Below are positions 5,860 through 12,969 of a stretch of 12,969 bases of DNA, piece by piece (positions within the stretch are counted from its first letter, which is position 1; each line of letters opens with the position of its first letter). Below the pieces are notes generated by a model, which saw only the letters and a list, made by a program, of their open reading frames with translations, searched no databases and was not told where the DNA came from. A program made the position numbers and the translations under genes. Source of the DNA: a virus (Duplodnaviria; Heunggongvirae; Uroviricota; Caudoviricetes); IMG/VR virus record IMGVR_UViG_2529292908_000006, positions 1 through 12,969 of that record; one strand, given 5' to 3'.

Positions 5860-6051
5860 ATGACCAAAGAAGAAAAAATTCTTTATTTATTCCAACTATC
5901 GGTTAAGACACACACTGCATATCAGACTGCTGCCATGACATCAGATAAAAATTACAGTACGTCAGAAAACCCGATAGACGACATAAGCAAGCTTTACGAT
6001 AAGTTCGAAGCACTACTCGATAAAAAGTTTGCTGAGGCTGGGCTTGAGTGA
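5860..6051 (+). CDS. small hypothetical protein, 63 aa, acidic and probably helical, AT-rich
   Basis: ATG at 5860 with SD AAGGAAA 8 nt upstream; TGA at 6049-6051. MTKEEKILYLFQLSVKTHTAYQTAAMTSDKNYSTSENPIDDISKLYDKFEALLDKKFAEAGLE. Antisense to the surrounding early-left operon; 3' end overlaps the convergent minus-strand ORF by 39 bp. Confidence 0.5.
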   Translation: MTKEEKILYLFQLSVKTHTAYQTAAMTSDKNYSTSENPIDDISKLYDKFEALLDKKFAEAGLE

Positions 6052-6219
6052 TTGTTGAATAATCGACAAAACCCAACTTAAATTTTCGTCAGTGGGCTCG
6101 ATGCCATGTGCGGTGAGCTCACTTTTCAAAACTCCAAGCAATTCAGAGCTGATTTTCAATATATCTGCTTGATTTCTAACTATTCCCACTTTTTCCTCCC
6201 TTGGTCTACGCGCGGTCAT
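6013..6219 (-). CDS. small hypothetical protein, first ORF downstream of the pL-like promoter (68 aa from ATG 6219; 58 aa from internal GTG 6189, which has a strong SD)
   Basis: ATG at 6219 has no SD. GTG at 6189..6187 is preceded by GGGAGG with a 5-nt spacer (minus strand gaccaagggaggaaaaagtg). N-terminus from the ATG is Arg-rich (MTARRPREEK). No family recognised. Confidence 0.45.
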   Translation of the reverse strand: MTARRPREEKVGIVRNQADILKISSELLGVLKSELTAHGIEPTDENLSWVLSIIQQSLKPSLSKLFIE

Positions 6220-6396
6220 GTTTTACGCCCAAACGACTTCACAGTTATTGTTTAAAATCTGGACTTTCATTTCATACACCTGCTTTAACATGAGTGCCTA
6301 GTGGCACAACATGACTCAACGAATCATCCTGGACTTCATATGCCCCAGGCGGCTACTTCGTGGGCGTCCTGCCTGTTCGTTGTTTCTCTTGGGTAC

Positions 6397-7228: not shown

Positions 7229-7402
7229 ATGAAAGCGTATTGGGACTCTTTAACCAAAGAACAGCAGGGCGAGTTGGCCGGAAAAGTTGGCTCAACACCT
7301 GGCTACTTACGGCTGGTTTTCAATGGCTATAAAAAGCCAGTTTTGTGCTGGCTAAAAAACTTGAGCAATGCACGTCAGGTGCAATTACGAAATCTGACTT
7401 AA
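7229..7402 (+). CDS. Cro-like small regulator, 57 aa
   Basis: ATG 7229 with GGAGG 10 nt upstream; divergent from cI across the operators. Called by position and size; the sequence (MKAYWDSLTKEQQGELAGKVGSTPGYLRLVFNGYKK) is only loosely HTH-like. Confidence 0.55.
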   Translation: MKAYWDSLTKEQQGELAGKVGSTPGYLRLVFNGYKKPVLCWLKNLSNARQVQLRNLT

Positions 7403-8118
7403 GACCGGATAACCGCAATGCGTCGAATGTTTATCAGCTTAACGTTGCGAAGCTTCAGGCAGCGGCATTTTCTCAACTGTCAGATTCTGACCCGTCAAAA
7501 TCTGACGCATCAAAATCTGACCCGTCAAAATTTGATGCGTCGAAATCTGGCAAAAAAGCGGGTTTTCACCCGTCAGAATCTGGCGGGGATCCGTCAGTAA
7601 AATCAAAACATGATCCATCAGATAAAAAACCTTCTCGTCCGGACGCTTCGCAACCGGACACGCAGATGGATGAACAGGATTTTTTAACTCGCCATCCTGA
7701 TGCGGTTGTATTCAGCCCTAAAAAGCGCCAGTGGGGAACGCAGGATGATTTGACCTGCGCACAGTGGCTCTGGAAAAAAATCATCGCCCTGTACGAGCAG
7801 GCCGCCGAATGTGACGGCGAGGTGGTTCGTCCCAAAGAACCTAACTGGACAGCCTGGGCAAACGAAATTCGCCTGATGTGTGTGCAGGATGGTCGTACTC
7901 ACAAACAAATCTGCGAGATGTACAGCCGCGTCAGCCGCGATCCGTTCTGGTGCCGTAACGTGCTCAGCCCGTCGAAGTTGCGGGAAAAATGGGATGAGCT
8001 TTCCCTGCGCTTATCGCCGTCCGTCAGCACGCACACAGAAAAACGTGAAGACCCGTACTTCAAAGCCAGTTACGACAATGTGGACTACAGCCAGATCCCG
8101 GCAGGATTCAGGGGGTGA
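7345..8118 (+). CDS. O-like replication initiation protein carrying ori iterons in its 5' part (start uncertain: GTG 7345 or ATG 7666)
   Basis: Position right after cro. Its 5' third encodes a pentapeptide-repeat tract (PSKSD ASKSD PSKFD ASKSG) from 15-bp direct repeats. I recall CPS-53 yfdO being annotated as a defective replication protein O. The GTG 7345 start overlaps cro by 58 nt with a weak SD, so the true start is unresolved. Confidence 0.5.
   Translation: MLAKKLEQCTSGAITKSDLRPDNRNASNVYQLNVAKLQAAAFSQLSDSDPSKSDASKSDPSKFDASKSGKKAGFHPSESGGDPSVKSKHDPSDKKPSRPDASQPDTQMDEQDFLTRHPDAVVFSPKKRQWGTQDDLTCAQWLWKKIIALYEQAAECDGEVVRPKEPNWTAWANEIRLMCVQDGRTHKQICEMYSRVSRDPFWCRNVLSPSKLREKWDELSLRLSPSVSTHTEKREDPYFKASYDNVDYSQIPAGFRG
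7481..7587. repeat. iteron array, about six 15-bp direct repeats (TCARAATCTGRNNNG); putative prophage replication origin
   Basis: cagattctgacccg / tcaaaatctgacgca / tcaaaatctgacccg / tcaaaatttgatgcg / tcgaaatctggcaaa / (gap) / tcagaatctggcggg. Lambdoid origins lie inside the O gene as iterons. Confidence 0.6.
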
Positions 8119-8120
8119 TT

Positions 8121-8456
8121 ATGAGTCTTTTGAATGAAGTTCAGAAATTCATTGAAGCCCATCCGGGGTGTACTTCCGGAGACATTGCGGATGCTTTTGC
8201 AGGTTACTCACGGCAGCGCGTTCTGCAGTCAGCAAGCAAGTTACGTCAGAGTGGGCGTGTGGCTCACCGTTGTGAAGGAGATACACGCAGACATTTCCCG
8301 CGCCTGACTGAGAGAGCGCAGGAGGCGGAACCGCAACCAGTTCGTGAAACCAGACCTGTGCGCAATTTCTATGTCGGCACTAACGACCCGCGGGAGATTT
8401 TGTGCCTGACCCGCCAGGCGGAAGAACTGGAGTCCAGGGGCTTATACCCGTGGTAA
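8121..8456 (+). CDS. hypothetical protein, 111 aa, immediately after the O-like gene; possibly altered at a deletion junction
   Basis: ATG 8121 with SD GGGGGTGA; start is 2 nt after the O-like stop (8116-8118). No family recognised. Its 3' end overlaps the open frame of the tail-fibre fragment (open from 8410). Confidence 0.45.
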
Positions 8457-8505
8457 CCCCCAGACCGGCACACCTGCCACCGATCTGGATGATGACTACT
8501 TTGAT

Positions 8506-8967
8506 ATGTTGCAGGAGGAGCTTTGCAGCGTGGTGGAGGCATCCGGTGCCAGCCTGGAGAAGGGGCGAAACGACCAGTTGCTTACCGCGCTTCGTGCTCT
8601 GCTGTTAAGCCGCAAGAATCCGTTTGGTGATATCAAATCGGATGGCACGGTGAAAACGGCTCTCGAAAACCTTGGTTTGGGAGAAGGTGCTAACTGGGTT
8701 ATGTTACCTGGAGGAATGATAATTCAGCGTGTTTATCTTGGATTTCCTATTGGCACCAATGTAAGACACATAACTTTCCCCCGGTCGTTTACAACAACGA
8801 ACTATTCCATCTCAATTAACTGGAATGATATCGGTACTGTAACAACTGAAACACAATCGCCAGCAAATGTGGCGGTTGTTCATCAAACAAAATCATTAAC
8901 AGGGGCCAGCATCTGGCAGGCAGGTCCCGGAGGATTTAATGTGGACATTATAGCGGTGGGGTATTGA
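8506..8967 (+). CDS. tail fibre protein, 3'-terminal fragment (end of constant region plus variable domain Sv); 5' bulk of the gene is missing
   Basis: Frame is open from 8410 but the first ATG is 8506. Sequence ([29 protein letters not shown] then a variable C-terminus) is typical of Mu/P1/e14-type tail fibres at the constant/variable junction. The crossover site lies within it (8660-8685). Under 100 codons of constant region remain. Confidence 0.65.
8660..8685. promoter_or_regulatory. left crossover site of the invertible segment (Hin/Gin/Pin-family 26-bp site)
   Basis: CTCTCGAAAACC-TT-GGTTTGGGAGAA: 12-bp half-sites around a central TT, fitting the family pattern AAACC-NN-GGTTT. Inner half plus flank (TTGGTTTGGGAGAAGGTGCT) is repeated in inverted orientation at 10400-10419. 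Confidence 0.7.
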
Positions 8968-8968
8968 T

Positions 8969-9397
8969 ATGTACGTATGGAGCGCTAAAGCAAATGGCTT
9001 TTTCCCCATATCGGAGAAAGAAAAATTTGAGGCATCAGGTCTGTGGCCTGATGATGGTGTAATAGTCAGTGAGGAAGAACATAAAAAGTTATTTATGGAT
9101 ATTCCACCAGGAAAACAGATTGGAACACTGAATGGAAAACCAGCACTGATAGATATTCCTCAGCCGACCAAAAAGGAATTAATAGCTATTGCTGAAGTTA
9201 AAAAATCCCAATTACGGGAAAAAGCTGACAGTGAAATATCCTGGCGTCAGGATGCTGTTGATGCTGATATCGCAACTGATGAAGAAGCTACAACTCTCAC
9301 CCAATGGAAGAAATACCGTGTGCTGCTGATGCGTGTTGATACGTCAACAGCACCCGATATTGAATGGCCTACGCCTCCGGCAGTTCAGGCCAGATGA
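8969..9397 (+). CDS. tail fibre assembly protein (Tfa), cassette 1, 142 aa
   Basis: Starts 2 nt after the Sv stop; conserved Tfa C-terminal motif (VDTSTAPDIEWPTPP). Typical Sv-Tfa pairing. Confidence 0.75.
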   Translation: MYVWSAKANGFFPISEKEKFEASGLWPDDGVIVSEEEHKKLFMDIPPGKQIGTLNGKPALIDIPQPTKKELIAIAEVKKSQLREKADSEISWRQDAVDADIATDEEATTLTQWKKYRVLLMRVDTSTAPDIEWPTPPAVQAR

Positions 9398-9965
9398 CAT
9401 CCGGCGCGGTGCTGGTATCTGTTGCCGTCACCGCGTCAATGTAATCCAGCACGGCGTTAAGTCGGGTTGTTTCTGCCTGAGTCAGTTTCCGTCCGGCCTG
9501 TAATTTCAGCTGAATCAGACTAATGGAAGCCATTGTTGCATCAATCAGTGACTGGCGCTGTGCTTCTGCCGCGTCTACTGCGGCACTGTGTTGTGCCTCA
9601 GTGTCTGTCACCCATTTCTCACCATCCCATTTATCGTATGGCGTTAACGGTGAAATCGTGACATAACCGTCTTTGATGGCACCGATATAATCCACTGTAA
9701 CAGCTGCGCCATTTTCGATTGAGTAAACAGTCTCATTGCGATGGTCTTCTTCATAGCTCCATCCCTTACCTGTAAATACTGCCACTCTTCCCGGAATGTT
9801 TTCGCCAGGGTCAATACCAGTGGAACAGGCGGGCATACTTACACCAGTATTAATATATTCATCAGACCAGCCCGTATATTCATACGTTACTGCATCATAA
9901 TAAAAACAACGCATATCGCCCGGCACTGTAGCCAGTCCATTTTCATCAAAAATTGGGGTCATCAT
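9369..9965 (-). CDS. tail fibre assembly protein (Tfa'), cassette 2, 198 aa, inverted orientation
   Basis: ATG 9965..9963 overlaps the Sv' stop (ATGA). C-terminal motif (TSTAPDVIWPELPEA) parallels Tfa. 3' end overlaps the convergent Tfa gene by 29 bp. Confidence 0.75.
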   Translation of the reverse strand: MMTPIFDENGLATVPGDMRCFYYDAVTYEYTGWSDEYINTGVSMPACSTGIDPGENIPGRVAVFTGKGWSYEEDHRNETVYSIENGAAVTVDYIGAIKDGYVTISPLTPYDKWDGEKWVTDTEAQHSAAVDAAEAQRQSLIDATMASISLIQLKLQAGRKLTQAETTRLNAVLDYIDAVTATDTSTAPDVIWPELPEA

Positions 9966-10417
9966 TTAGCCCTCACCAGAAAGTTAAATGCAATATTTCG
10001 CGGTCTGACAGCAACAAAATTAACACCATCTCCTACTGAGTTACTGGTGTACTGAAATCGAGAGAAACCTGGCTGGTGTGCTGATATTCCATCGTAATCA
10101 GCAATCGCATGGCCGGACCCTTCTGGATAATTACCGCCAAATTGCGATAAAGATGTTGCTGCCTGCCAGCTTAATAATGCTCGCCCACTGTCCGCCCCTC
10201 GCCCATCATCCCAGATACGAATGAAATCACCGCGGGCTTCAGGTAATACCAGCGAAGGAAACACTTTTGCCAGCACAGGGTAATCAGTGGCAGAGAATTT
10301 CGCGCCGTTGAACTTCAAAAACACCATGCCGGACCAGCTTTCGATTACGGTATCTGGCATTGCGGCGGACGGCCAGAAGAACGGAACGCCAATAGCTGGA
10401 GCACCTTCTCCCAAACC
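9962..10417 (-). CDS. alternative tail fibre C-terminal variable domain (Sv'), silent in this orientation
   Basis: Sequence (GVPFFWPSAAMPDTVIESW ... GDFIRIWDDGRGADSGR ... NIAFNFLVRAK) is typical of Mu/P1/e14-type tail fibre C-termini. Reads into the right crossover site; shares the LGLGEG junction codons with the plus-strand fibre. The ORF track's extension to 10459 is just the spacer before pin read in frame. Confidence 0.7.
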   Translation of the reverse strand, partial: GLGEGAPAIGVPFFWPSAAMPDTVIESWSGMVFLKFNGAKFSATDYPVLAKVFPSLVLPEARGDFIRIWDDGRGADSGRALLSWQAATSLSQFGGNYPEGSGHAIADYDGISAHQPGFSRFQYTSNSVGDGVNFVAVRPRNIAFNFLVRAK

Positions 10418-10431
10418 AACGTATATGAAAA
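10406..10431. promoter_or_regulatory. right crossover site of the invertible segment
   Basis: TTCTCCCAAACC-AA-CGTATATGAAAA. Its left half plus centre is the exact reverse complement of the left site's centre plus right half. About 55 bp upstream of the invertase start. Confidence 0.7.
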
Positions 10432-10485
10432 TGCAGAAATAACGAGCAAATGGCATCATTCCTGCTTTTACCAGGGGGATTTAAC

Positions 10486-11040
10486 ATGCTTATTGGCTAT
10501 GTACGTGTATCAACAAATGACCAGAATACCGATCTACAACGTAATGCGCTGAACTGTGCAGGATGTGAGCTGATTTTTGAAGACAAGATAAGCGGTACAA
10601 AGTCCGACAGACCAGGACTGAAAAAGCTGCTCAGGACATTATCGGCAGGTGACACGCTGGTGGTCTGGAAACTGGACCGACTGGGGCGCAGTATGCGGCA
10701 TCTTGTCGTGCTGGTGGAGGAGTTGCGCGAACGAGGTATCAACTTTCGTAGTCTGACGGATTCAATTGATACCAGTACCCCAATGGGGCGCTTTTTCTTT
10801 CATGTGATGGGTGCCCTCGCTGAAATGGAGCGTGAACTGATTGTTGAACGAACAAAAGCTGGACTGGAAGCAGCTCGCGCACAGGGACGAATTGGTGGAC
10901 GTCGCCCCAAACTTACACCAGAACAATGGGAGCAGGCCGGACGATTAATTGCAGCAGGAATTCCTCGCCAGAAGGTAGCGATCATCTATGATGTTGGTGT
11001 ATCGACACTGTATAAGATGTTTCCGGTCGGAGATAAATGA
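10486..11040 (+). CDS. pin: serine-recombinase DNA invertase of the Pin/Gin/Hin/Cin family, 184 aa
   Basis: ATG 10486 with SD GGGGGA. N-terminal catalytic motif MLIGYVRVSTNDQ ... VVWKLDRLGRS and C-terminal HTH. Closely matches e14 Pin as I recall it. Adjacent to the invertible tail-fibre segment. Confidence 0.9.
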   Translation: MLIGYVRVSTNDQNTDLQRNALNCAGCELIFEDKISGTKSDRPGLKKLLRTLSAGDTLVVWKLDRLGRSMRHLVVLVEELRERGINFRSLTDSIDTSTPMGRFFFHVMGALAEMERELIVERTKAGLEAARAQGRIGGRRPKLTPEQWEQAGRLIAAGIPRQKVAIIYDVGVSTLYKMFPVGDK

Positions 11041-11355
11041 AACCGCAGGCTCGTCGTATGCAAGAACGTGCTGCGGCTGGCTGGTGAACTTCCGATAGTG
11101 CGAGTATTGAATGATTTCCAACTGTTATCGATTTTGCGTATTTTTTGCATGAGAGGATTTTTACCTCCTCCCACCGATCCTCCATGGCTTTACGCCAGTG
11201 TCTCTGGTCTGCTATGTGCCAAAAGTAGACATTGCTGACATAAAATATATGATTTGACCAACTACAACCGAAGAATAGTCCAATACATCTTGGGTCTACA
11301 TCCAACTAGTTATAGAATCCCGAGTATACATGTTAGTTTTGGACATTCTAATCAC

Positions 11356-11775
11356 ATGAAATATTGCTACCTGATAATTTTAAGCTTGACTATTTCTTCT
11401 GCTCAGGCTGAGACATTTCCCGCCAAGCTAACCTGTAATACGGGTGAACAAATTACTCTTAAAGTTACTGGTCCAGAGCAGCGACTGATCTACACTTCTT
11501 CACTCTATGGAACATTCCATGGATATCTCGATGTATTTAAAGGGTTATCACCTGAGCGTCAATATGAGGTACTTGCCAATATTCATGGAATAGCTCGATA
11601 TAGGGACAGCCCGTTACATTTTACTCTCCTAATGAAACGAACCAATGGTGAGATGGATAATGGCTCAATTATCTATCGATATACCTACCTGAAAGACGAG
11701 CAACTGATTGATGAAGAAGGACATTGCAGTCCGATAAAAGATGGCGGATTTATTGAGGGGAGCAAAAGTTACTAA
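11356..11775 (+). CDS. hypothetical secreted protein, 139 aa, predicted SPase I signal peptide; AT-rich moron
   Basis: MKYCYLIILSLTISSAQA then ETF: Lys N-region, hydrophobic core, AQA cleavage motif, no lipobox. Mature part has two Cys. Low GC against its neighbours. Start taken at ATG 11356 (track ORF begins 11254 without signal logic); SD is weak. Confidence 0.5.
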   Translation: MKYCYLIILSLTISSAQAETFPAKLTCNTGEQITLKVTGPEQRLIYTSSLYGTFHGYLDVFKGLSPERQYEVLANIHGIARYRDSPLHFTLLMKRTNGEMDNGSIIYRYTYLKDEQLIDEEGHCSPIKDGGFIEGSKSY

Positions 11776-11908
11776 GGCCAAGCGTATAGTTATCGGTATG
11801 CTTACCGTTTGCAGACCCCACGGCGCTCAGGCAGCCCGCTCCGTGCCAATAGCAGGCATTACTATGGTCTGTTCCGTAACAGTCATTTTTACCAAAGTAT
11901 ATGGTTAG

Positions 11909-12969
<1,061 letters not shown>

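Follow-up and report, generated by a model that had tools for sequence, protein, structure and literature searches.

Between the pin invertase gene and an IS5-family element, the window (the whole 12,969-bp stretch of viral DNA that was analysed) carries a gene for a 139-aa precursor that is under purifying selection, as judged by comparing homologous sequences, and that very probably encodes a genuine exported cargo protein. By its sequence the protein belongs to no described family, and its mature part is modelled as an eight-stranded up-and-down beta-barrel of avidin topology, probably a soluble one. Together with its flanking signals the gene fits a self-contained mobile cargo unit, or moron (11216–11811), a commonplace sort of element whose product is here undescribed. 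Our best guess for the function, a tentative one drawn by analogy, is that of a periplasmic protective binder or inhibitor. The account as a whole, in which a moron supplies an exported barrel that acts as a protective binder, is plausible while falling a little short of probable.

Gene structure and coding status

The features assigned to the region and its flanks are as follows.

11041–11215 (no strand assigned): dispersed prophage-end repeat with its core at ~11044–11140, found by blastn; GC 48.6%; left flank of the cargo cassette.
11043–11076 (+ strand): hairpin CCGCAG...CTGCGG within the repeat, directly 3' of the pin stop codon, from sequence and MFE fold.
11226–11253 (+ strand): distal sigma-70-like site TAGACA-16-TATGAT, 10 of 12 matches in a consensus scan.
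11290–11318 (+ strand): promoter candidate with -35 TTGGGT (11290–11295), a 17-bp spacer and -10 TAGAAT (11313–11318), from cross-genus conservation.
11356–11775 (+ strand): coding sequence of the 139-aa precursor, stop codon included, from the frame list, a PGAP match, dN/dS and homologues.
11356–11409 (+ strand): predicted signal peptide of 18 codons, MKYCYLIILSLTISSAQA, with the predicted cut before E19, from hydropathy, a 20-member alignment and low AlphaFold confidence.
11410–11772 (+ strand): mature domain of 121 aa, 13.8 kDa, pI 5.8; in the model, an eight-stranded up-and-down beta-barrel plus a short C-terminal strand.
11780–11803 (+ strand): hairpin 5 nt past the stop codon, a possible weak terminator, with an 8-bp stem in E. 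coli (RNAfold).
11905–11908 (no strand assigned): TTAG target site of the IS insertion; homology to uninterrupted cassettes stops at 11908.
11909–12969 (+ strand): IS5-family (ISKpn26-like) element running past the window end, from sequence and cassette comparison.

With 83 ORFs of 50 aa or more in the window, a bare ORF is no proof of a gene. The first-pass annotation had proposed one here, to be abandoned if the frame were not conserved as coding in related genomes. It is conserved: the 420-nt frame, from the ATG at 11356 to the stop codon at 11773–11775, runs without gaps through five genera, with dN/dS of 0.10–0.21 at dS of 0.8–1.7. The ORF was whole in every locus fetched, while the neighbouring nuclease gene was often broken. 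The exact 139-aa protein is present on at least 1000 contigs, and on identical DNA PGAP annotates this very 420-nt CDS, with WP_001333214.1 as the identical product.

Two other start codons were considered. A longer TTG-started ORF (11254–11775, 173 aa) encloses the 139-aa frame in the ORF list, and PGAP, whose choice of start is inconsistent between records, also gives a 129-aa version beginning at a TTG. Both readings were dropped because the stretch homologous between genera starts only ~19 nt upstream of the ATG (11356) and the PGAP TTG is not conserved between genera, whereas the ATG and the first 10 codons are kept. This fixes the start codon for annotation, giving 139 aa with a signal peptide rather than the 129-aa PGAP variant.

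The gene also stands apart from its neighbours in composition, as had been noted from the letters, its GC content being 40.0% where pin has 49.5% and the IS element 54.6%. Only 2.8% of the 420-bp windows across the 12,969 bp are as GC-poor as the ORF, and the poorest of them begins at 11221. The placement between invertase and IS5 proved equally accurate, the pin stop codon at 11038–11040 being the 5' neighbour of the region and the IS5-family element beginning at 11909. The further claim that the 315 bp upstream of the gene are AT-rich held for the proximal 140 bp (11216–11355, 35.7% GC); the remainder, 11041–11215, is the prophage repeat with its GC of 48.6%, and lies outside the gene's own AT-rich control region.

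By blastn, 5407 of 5426 complete E. coli genomes carry this repeat, at a median of three copies. Among the places where it occurs are the K-12 Qin end, the DNA upstream of ykgJ and a Citrobacter prophage, and the repeat forms the left homology boundary of the cassette in loci L002 and L003. The first-pass annotation overlooked this ubiquitous sequence, as it did the ~3-kb cassette with a 488-aa nuclease gene and the avidin-topology barrel. The hairpin inside the repeat has no U-tract behind it; the copy in locus L001 appears, on our reading of the alignment, to retain the stem with its register shifted. RNA folding of the repeat (11036–11220) was not significant on either strand (z -0.7 and -1.2), nor was folding of the 5' UTR and the 3' region against shuffles, and an Rfam scan of 10900–11950 returned only a sub-threshold match to the 3' end of CssrB (23 bits versus a gathering score of 76), which concerns the hairpin inside the repeat.

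Two promoter-like sequences precede the gene. The distal site is conserved between E. coli and Pectobacterium only. At the proximal one, E. coli, Pectobacterium, K. pneumoniae, K. aerogenes and C. freundii share the blocks TCTTGG and TATAGAAT with little or no change, amid DNA that has diverged. TTGGGT-17-TAGAAT lies below the -35 threshold of the consensus scan; its conservation across five genera suggests a promoter.

Beyond the stop codon, a hairpin with other arm sequences takes the same position in K. aerogenes and K. pneumoniae (10 bp, -17.2 kcal/mol), and C. freundii has a marginal 5-bp stem after the stop (-1.1 kcal/mol); the hairpin is thus clear in three genera. These hairpins were folded one sequence at a time, as a MAFFT alignment left the Citrobacter arms out of register. 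A consensus scan found no canonical terminator, and the downstream T-runs are weak. In other E. coli the small gene is followed by a 488-aa nuclease gene; here the IS element comes between the two.

Predicted export and fold of the product

The N-terminus has the layout of a signal peptide: M-K, a hydrophobic core (best 9-mer Kyte-Doolittle value 2.51) and A-Q-A before E, the basic residue here being K2. The same three-part layout occurs in all 20 aligned members, down to 33% identity and with the residues themselves varying. Core values range from 2.1 to 3.0 among eight representative members, and [A/V/G/S/T]-x-[A/C/S/T] precedes the conserved mature N-terminus (x-F-P-A) in the 20 sequences. 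The first-pass annotation had read a signal peptide with cleavage after AQA, a reading that the conservation of the signal upholds. Regular-expression and hydropathy checks on the protein found no lipobox, twin-arginine motif or further hydrophobic segment, and the highest 19-mer Kyte-Doolittle value in the mature part is at most 0.94. The precursor would be exported by Sec and cut after AQA by signal peptidase I, and the product, with ETFPAK as its predicted N-terminus, would be a soluble periplasmic protein of 13.8 kDa.

AlphaFold assigns residues 1–20 a confidence below 61 and the rest of the chain one above 90. The modelled barrel would have a conserved core of hydrophobic and aromatic residues. 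It is more readily seen as soluble than as membrane-embedded because the hydrophobic strand faces are conserved (entropy 0.84 versus 1.21, lower values meaning conserved, with faces assigned by strand periodicity and not by coordinates), because the strands are short (4 of 9 have only 4–6 residues in the AlphaFold model) and because the GRAVY value is -0.51. The two cysteines noted earlier in the mature part, C27 and C124 in precursor numbering, are invariant in 20 of 20 family sequences; C4, within the signal peptide, is not conserved. Q42, R43, Y46, S48, Y109, I133 and G135 are likewise invariant residues. The invariant cysteine pair probably forms one disulfide made by DsbA. C27 closes strand 1 and C124 falls in the later part of strand 8, positions that need not adjoin in a simple up-and-down topology.

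These sequences define a small uncharacterised family with a confident fold, comprising only ~25 sequence clusters, all of them stand-alone proteins of ~130–150 aa. Searches of Pfam, NCBIfam and PADLOC with the 139-aa protein gave nothing significant (best, a spurious TFIIIC match at E 0.096), and PHROGs gave a single marginal match (phrog_24265, E 0.006), a family without assigned function. No match was found by tblastn against 50,697 phage records, a PDB sequence-profile search gave chance Kae1 matches only (E ~0.25) and no avidin, and the BFVD viral structure library held nothing at E up to 0.001. A literature search by accession numbers returned no papers on the protein. The functional proposal made below has no homology to any characterised protein behind it in Pfam, NCBIfam, PADLOC or the PDB profile search.

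Membership of three known barrel families was considered and rejected. For the avidins (PF01382) there is no Pfam match at E up to 0.1, and tryptophan is absent from 12 of 12 family members checked. Biotin binding by avidins depends on tryptophans. A PROSITE-style avidin pattern is likewise absent from family members. Membership of the Ail/Lom/OmpX group was rejected on the lack of a profile match, the short strands and the residues K and G at C-terminal positions -3 and -5. The lysozyme inhibitors MliC/PliC (PF09864) are marked by the motifs SxSGAxY and YxxxTKG (PMC5507604); both are absent here and there is no Pfam match.

Distribution and neighbouring genes

All identified hosts are Enterobacterales, and the gene is always borne by a mobile element. 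Members lie at the tail-fibre ends of prophages, on conjugative plasmids, on an integrative element and in a single 230-kb phage contig, and the one in that contig bears a signal peptide. Other members come from a compost metagenome and from the plant pathogen Pectobacterium. The full 860 bp is found in 38 of 5426 complete E. coli genomes, and GTDB species representatives gave no match to the small gene. The slot adjacent to pinE has different contents in loci L001, L002 and L003, and orientation relative to the SRAP gene differs between Citrobacter and Klebsiella. The gene appears to move alone among conjugative plasmids, the ends of lambdoid and Mu/e14-like prophages, an integrative mobilisable element and a large phage contig. 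Comparison of the loci shows it tied to no single neighbour and independent of its nuclease neighbours.

Defence-type genes are frequent neighbours, namely PD-T4-3, a PD-T4-7-like gene, the DUF4297/LmuA-like 488-aa nuclease gene and a GIY-YIG EndoII-like gene. The same pin-side slot holds PD-T4-3 and the DUF4297 nuclease gene in other E. coli, in agreement with the earlier suggestion that the tail-fibre/invertase slot receives exchangeable cargo; in e14 this slot holds mcrA. Because the same hotspots also contain non-defence cargo (umuDC, dinI, SRAP), adjoining defence genes are weak evidence of function.

The moron reading of 11216–11811 draws together the odd GC content, the conserved promoter blocks, the hairpin, the varied orientation and the patchy presence. 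Such a unit would comprise a single ORF, preceded by a sigma-70 promoter candidate of its own and followed, past the stop codon, by a weak hairpin.

Proposed function, alternatives and comparison with known systems

We suggest that the protein acts without catalysis, through stoichiometric binding of a harmful incoming protein in the periplasm. The likeliest target would be a peptidoglycan hydrolase or another envelope-penetrating part of a competing phage, a bacteriocin or a secretion-system effector, and the outcome would be protection of the cell that carries the mobile element. A peptidoglycan hydrolase as the specific target is a narrower proposal and an unlikely one. The nuclease neighbours and the member in the 230-kb phage contig lean the context towards mobile-element conflict or defence over classical virulence. 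A bolder version would make the family a novel kind of periplasmic exclusion or immunity factor, soluble and barrel-shaped, common to temperate phages, a large (probably virulent) phage, conjugative plasmids and integrative elements, that neutralises an incoming envelope-breaching protein such as a phage tail lysozyme or a secreted muramidase effector. This is a speculation that we think much more likely to fail than to hold up. Were the protein an exclusion or immunity factor, a soluble, periplasmic, single-gene mechanism would join a catalogue of mobile-element defences in which cytoplasmic nucleases predominate, and its presence in the defence hotspots of clinically relevant Enterobacterales prophages and plasmids would be explained.

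The strongest alternative, itself unlikely, is a small-molecule binder whose calycin-, avidin- or lipocalin-like pocket would trap a periplasmic metabolite, lipid, siderophore or signal, to the nutritional or protective benefit of the carrier cell. The best Foldseek matches are indeed ligand-binding avidins and not inhibitors; their E values are no better than 0.014 at 5–13% identity, and the structural similarity is generic. The missing Pfam Avidin match and the tryptophan-free family speak against such a pocket, the assignment of inside and outside faces rests on strand periodicity rather than coordinates, and the gene context holds no pointer to metabolism.

It is improbable that the protein is a virulence or colonisation factor, a phage-borne equivalent of MliC/PliC and the Neisseria protein ACP directed at animal lysozyme or another host antimicrobial protein. 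Neither inhibitor motif is present and Pfam gives no match, and the members in Pectobacterium, the compost metagenome and the 230-kb phage contig misfit specificity for an animal host.

More improbable still is a two-gene defence system with the adjacent nuclease (the 488-aa DUF4297/LmuA-like protein in E. coli, the GIY-YIG EndoII-like protein in Atlantibacter-type plasmids), in which the small protein would serve, for example, as an envelope-side sensor or regulator. The norm in E. coli is for the small gene and the 488-aa nuclease gene to share a ~3-kb cassette, and 29 of the 39 E. coli carrier genomes hold both genes in one cassette of at least 99.5% identity. IS elements or frameshifts have repeatedly disrupted the 488-aa gene, a fate common among toxic effectors, and three loci of the 132-aa subfamily show a 4-nt overlap of the small gene with the GIY-YIG stop codon. 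Against this, the small gene is on its own in four other genera, with neither nuclease beside it in Klebsiella, Citrobacter and Pectobacterium loci; the 488-aa family has a much broader range, with 119 clusters spread from Gammaproteobacteria to Bacteroidota, and occurs alone; and the GIY-YIG gene is found in 10 species-representative genomes with no small gene adjoining. The E. coli pair is separated by a 315-bp gap, and the partners would work in different cell compartments. Functional coupling to the 488-aa, PD-T4-3 or GIY-YIG EndoII-like genes was rejected on these phyletic grounds.

An eight-stranded outer-membrane barrel of the Lom/Ail/OmpX type would suit the position, such proteins being common prophage cargo near tail-fibre genes, yet we regard it as highly improbable. 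No Pfam family of this kind matches, 4 of the 9 strands have only 4–6 residues, and the hydrophobic faces are conserved, the opposite of lipid-facing belts. The C-terminal -3 and -5 residues (K and G) are not hydrophobic, and some members extend past the tyrosine. The family also has a conserved cysteine pair, which is unusual in outer-membrane barrels. Lastly, a spurious or decaying ORF without function, for which one might cite the poor Shine-Dalgarno sequence, the inconsistent PGAP start and the tiny family, is effectively refuted by strong purifying selection at saturating synonymous divergence, by a frame intact in all fetched loci beside an often broken neighbour and by the confident AlphaFold model.

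As to the moron reading, the unit shows textbook moron features (PMC3594210). Like HK97 gene 15, lambda bor and lom, it is an addition to some related prophages that others lack, differs in GC from its neighbours, has a promoter candidate and a hairpin past the stop codon, and sits at a tail-fibre/att end with a product predicted to act at the level of the envelope (PMC3594210). It differs from known morons in that its product belongs to no described moron family and in that plasmids, an integrative element and a large phage contig carry the unit too. The position immediately 3' of pinE, with a conserved repeat boundary and exchangeable low-GC contents, is that of the cargo slot beside the Pin invertase of e14/Mu-like elements; the other occupants of the pinE slot are cytoplasmic nucleases acting on DNA, whereas the small protein is predicted to be periplasmic.

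At the protein level, MliC/PliC and Neisseria ACP are eight-stranded barrels that inhibit lysozyme by binding it, and the ACP disulfide joins the first and last strands (PMC5507604). They and the small protein are alike in being exported, ~10–14 kDa in size, eight-stranded antiparallel barrels and endowed with one conserved cysteine pair, features that for our protein are partly model-based. The functional model we favour is T4 Spackle, a small, exported, disulfide-bonded periplasmic protein that shields the cell carrying it by inhibiting the tail lysozyme of an incoming phage through stoichiometric binding (PMC7677548). Both proteins are small, borne by mobile elements and exported by a signal peptide (predicted for the small protein). 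No sequence relationship to Spackle was found by tblastn against the 50,697 phage records, and Spackle, at 75 aa, is an alpha-helical bundle (PMC7677548), whereas the small protein is all-beta in its AlphaFold model. If the bolder version given above is true, the protein would be to beta-barrels what T4 Spackle is to helical bundles, and no earlier factor of this sort would have travelled as an independent moron between types of mobile element.

Coding status and start codon of the small gene

The window starts within proA, and tRNA-Thr(CGT) is followed by a degraded, apparently defective prophage whose last recognisable parts are an invertible segment and a Pin-type serine invertase (Resolvase and HTH_7 domains, E 1.6e-51). 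The features are as follows.

1-1254: proA, in which the window starts
1369-1444: tRNA-Thr(CGT)
8506-10459: invertible tail-fibre and tail-fibre-assembly segment
11038-11040: pin stop codon, left limit of the stretch studied
11041-11215: dispersed repeat of ~90-175 bp (core 11044-11140), directly 3' of pinE
11290-11295 and 11313-11318: candidate sigma-70 promoter, -35 TTGGGT, 17-bp spacer, -10 TAGAAT, proposed from cross-genus conservation
11356-11775, + strand: small gene, ATG 11356, stop 11773-11775, 139 aa; its first 18 residues are the predicted signal peptide MKYCYLIILSLTISSAQA (K2, hydrophobic core, A-Q-A before E19)
11909 to beyond the window end: IS5-family element, after a TTAG target

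The integrase frame is broken into three overlapping ORFs (1459-1857, 1758-2246 and 2162-2620), and the early-region ORFs lead directly into a tail-fibre fragment (C-terminal) and then the invertible segment (7345-10459); head and tail genes are missing from this junction. A Norwegian broiler isolate (locus L026) has a similar arrangement, with annotated replication genes preceding the segment.

The first-pass annotation had described a 139-aa ORF in a low-GC block between the invertase and IS5, preceded by 315 bp of AT-rich DNA. The ORF was found as described, bounded by the pin stop codon and the IS5-family element, and its GC content (40.0%) lies below that of pin (49.5%) and the IS element (54.6%); across all 12,969 bp, GC is lowest in the 420 bp that begin at 11221. 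The upstream description held for the proximal 140 bp (35.7% GC) and failed for the distal 175 bp (11041-11215, 48.6% GC).

With 83 ORFs of 50 aa or more in the window, a bare ORF is little evidence of a gene. Cross-genome comparison settled the matter: Pectobacterium, Klebsiella pneumoniae, K. aerogenes and Citrobacter freundii have homologues that are 62-88% identical, remoter homologues show 33-44% identity, and the ungapped 420-nt frame is preserved in five genera with synonymous divergence of 0.8-1.7 and dN/dS of 0.10-0.21. The ORF is a conserved coding gene, and a spurious reading frame is extremely improbable. PGAP is inconsistent on identical DNA, calling either 139 aa (WP_001333214.1) or, with an internal TTG as start, 129 aa (WP_223596848.1), a version that loses the signal peptide. 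The discrepancy (11356 versus 11386) concerns L003 (8344), an E. coli locus with other contents in the pinE-adjacent slot, and locus L025 (13346). The internal start was rejected: the ATG and first ten codons are conserved across genera, K. pneumoniae has TCC in place of the TTG, and cross-genus nucleotide homology starts ~19 nt upstream of the ATG. These comparisons argue that the 139-aa reading, with its predicted signal peptide, is the correct one.

Distribution, transcription unit and flanking DNA

The product belongs to an undescribed, very small protein family. Among 5.8 billion proteins, a single-sequence search recovered 11 clusters at 90% identity and a profile search 25, while an exhaustive HMM search recovered 9 representatives among 1.84 billion; all members are stand-alone, 129-149 aa long and labelled 'hypothetical' by every source. 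The locus is present in 38 of 5426 complete E. coli genomes and absent from all 185,579 species-representative genomes, although records of the identical protein come from at least 1000 contigs; the gene is therefore strictly accessory and spreads horizontally.

The gene is also mobile independently of its neighbours. E. coli carriers have it in Mu/e14-like and lambda-like prophages. Lambdoid prophages of C. freundii, K. pneumoniae and K. aerogenes have it as the terminal gene of their tail-fibre end, beside SRAP/umuDC/dinI; Citrobacter and Klebsiella differ in how it is oriented towards the SRAP gene. In Pectobacterium the carrier is an integrative element that encodes a relaxase and two integrases. 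E. coli and Salmonella also have the gene on IncHI1B and IncFIB plasmids, and Atlantibacter has a member at 39% identity on IncFIB plasmids. Another member lies on a 230-kb phage contig from a JGI metagenome (L036), with genes for a terminase small subunit, a SegE-like homing endonuclease and a lysozyme. This copy was called as 101 aa without a signal; the full ORF (5899-6306) encodes 135 aa with a signal peptide, reading MKRYIIPLLCFSAATYGA before the predicted cleavage site and KFPA after it.

Upstream of the gene, all five genera share the blocks TCTTGG and TATAGAAT amid diverged surrounding DNA; these blocks plausibly form a sigma-70 promoter. Our consensus scan does not list it because the scan requires 4/6 matches at -35, so we infer the promoter from conservation. 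A hairpin lies 5 nt past the stop codon. E. coli, K. aerogenes and K. pneumoniae (10 bp, -17.2 kcal/mol) have different arm sequences, and C. freundii has only a marginal 5-bp stem (-1.1 kcal/mol). The T-runs that follow are weak and the consensus scan found no canonical terminator; terminator function is possible. The unit common to the window and Pectobacterium spans 11211-11811 at 92% identity. [quoted passage not shown] We read it as an ordinary element of this kind, a moron in a prophage cargo slot.

Of 5426 complete E. coli genomes, 5407 carry the dispersed repeat, with a median of 3 copies; its sole annotation is a spurious 'capsid protein' pseudogene. Copies are found at prophage tail-fibre or att ends, including K-12 Qin beside ydfJ', upstream of ykgJ, and in a Citrobacter prophage. 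Since the repeat is the left boundary of the cargo cassette, it may serve as a conserved flank for recombinational cargo exchange. A hairpin at its start is apparently kept, in shifted register, in another copy; RNA-fold z-scores of the repeat were not significant, and Rfam returned only a sub-threshold match to the CssrB 3' end.

The ~110 bp 3' of the small gene (11776-11908; compare loci L019 6553-6587, L020 6476 and L027 3034-5966) are an IS-insertion hot spot, with IS5-family elements at three positions in either orientation. This window (IS from 11909) and NZ_OZ546993 have the element at 11908; IncFIB plasmids have it where 11831 would lie, and IncHI1B plasmids another 34 bp downstream. 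ECONIH5 has ISSen4 37 bp past the stop codon. On the plasmids the small gene moves together with the IS element but lacks the nuclease gene, and IncFIB and IncHI1B plasmids have a common left junction (window 11093) after TTAA or TTAG.

Export signal and predicted fold

The canonical signal peptide claimed at first pass was borne out by alignment: its three-part layout is kept in 20/20 members while the residues vary, with cleavage-site triplets AQA, VQA, AHA, VNA, AQC, GQA, SYS, AQS, SQA and SHT, and a conserved mature N-terminus x-F-P-A. The best 9-mer of the core scores 2.51 (Kyte-Doolittle), and the 139-aa protein has no lipobox, twin-arginine motif or further hydrophobic segment. Sec export with cleavage between AQA and E would follow. 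The mature protein (13.8 kDa, pI 5.8, GRAVY -0.51) contains, as proposed, two cysteines, C27 and C124; both are invariant in 20/20 aligned members, which, given the predicted periplasmic location, suggests a single disulfide.

AlphaFold2, run with 11 and then 20 sequences, gave in either run a mean pLDDT of 86.3 and pTM of 0.79 (mature domain >90, signal peptide <61), and five of five models in the second run were at 84-86. Nine strands with short hairpin connections are predicted, and the confident model is thus an up-and-down barrel. Foldseek placed avidins on top, at E-values of 0.014 or worse and TM-scores from 0.27 to 0.56. A small-molecule binder of the avidin/calycin kind is a doubtful alternative. 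The likeness to avidins is one of topology and not homology, because identity is 5-13%, Pfam Avidin is not matched, and every family member lacks tryptophan, on which avidins depend for biotin binding. A barrel could also inhibit host lysozyme as a virulence factor, which is unlikely, as the motifs defined for the MliC/PliC inhibitors, SxSGAxY and YxxxTKG (PMC5507604), are absent.

Neighbouring genes and proposed role

The usual E. coli cassette is ~3 kb long and shows 99.5% identity or more from genome to genome. In it the 175-bp repeat and the small gene are followed, after a gap of 315 bp, by a 488-aa gene whose product weakly matches the LmuA N-terminus (PADLOC E 0.002) and is named DUF4297 or 'restriction endonuclease' in UniRef. 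This adjacency would suit a partner of the nuclease, a very unlikely role: the 488-aa gene stands alone in Pantoea, Pectobacterium and one P2-like prophage, and the small gene lacks it in four other genera. An obligate two-gene system was rejected because each gene occurs without the other and the 488-aa family is far broader (119 clusters, Gammaproteobacteria to Bacteroidota); PADLOC does not list that family as a system.

The 488-aa gene lies outside the window (L002, another E. coli locus, 9049-10515; normally 315 bp 3' of the small gene) and encodes an N-terminal LmuA/Cap4-like (DUF4297) nuclease domain. In E. coli it is frameshifted in L001, H95 and H97, hit by IS5, ISSen4 or IS1 in carriers H71, H89 and H99, and deleted behind an IS element in NZ_OZ546993. 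Recurrent inactivation fits a costly stand-alone defence nuclease.

At three loci (L021 5255-6390, L039 387-1561, L040 1-1085) the stop of a GIY-YIG EndoII-like gene (phrog_1111, E 2e-9) overlaps by 4 nt the start of the small gene in a 132-aa subfamily found in Atlantibacter and E. coli plasmids and metagenomes. The product of the GIY-YIG gene (246-259 aa) carries its EndoII-like GIY-YIG domain at the N-terminus, and its C-terminal half is uncharacterised. This gene too was rejected as an obligate partner: ten species-representative genomes have it with no small gene beside it, and it stands alone in Raoultella, Rouxiella, Phytobacter, Paraburkholderia and others. Since neighbours include PD-T4-3 (GIY-YIG, E 1.9e-139; L002 7036-7809), which in some E. 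coli prophages separates the small gene from pinE, and a PD-T4-7-like gene (E 2.4e-34; L012 9423-10460) two genes from the K. pneumoniae homologue, the small gene lies in defence and moron hotspots, a suggestive but weak clue to its role.

A barrel might alternatively sit in the outer membrane, which is highly improbable: four of nine strands have only 4-6 residues, Pfam matches no outer-membrane barrel family, the C-terminal -3 and -5 residues are K and G with some members extending beyond the final tyrosine, and hydrophobic strand faces are the more conserved (mean column entropy 0.84 vs 1.21, Mann-Whitney p = 0.046), which fits a packed core and not a lipid-facing belt. A soluble barrel in the periplasm is therefore the most likely form of the protein.

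We tentatively suggest, by analogy, a protective binder or inhibitor: the protein would bind a harmful incoming protein stoichiometrically in the periplasm and thereby protect the element-carrying cell. A peptidoglycan hydrolase as the target is a rather doubtful guess, and the remaining probability falls to other, unlisted functions. Envelope-level exclusion activity, if true, would raise interest in the gene. The functional precedent is T4 Spackle, a small, exported, disulfide-bonded protein that inhibits a superinfecting phage's tail lysozyme; Spackle is helical (PMC7677548), whereas the fold predicted here is a beta-barrel. Barrel-type lysozyme inhibitors offer a second precedent for the proposed binding: MliC/PliC and Neisseria ACP are eight-stranded barrels, and ACP has no MliC/PliC motifs and a disulfide that joins its first and last strands (PMC5507604).
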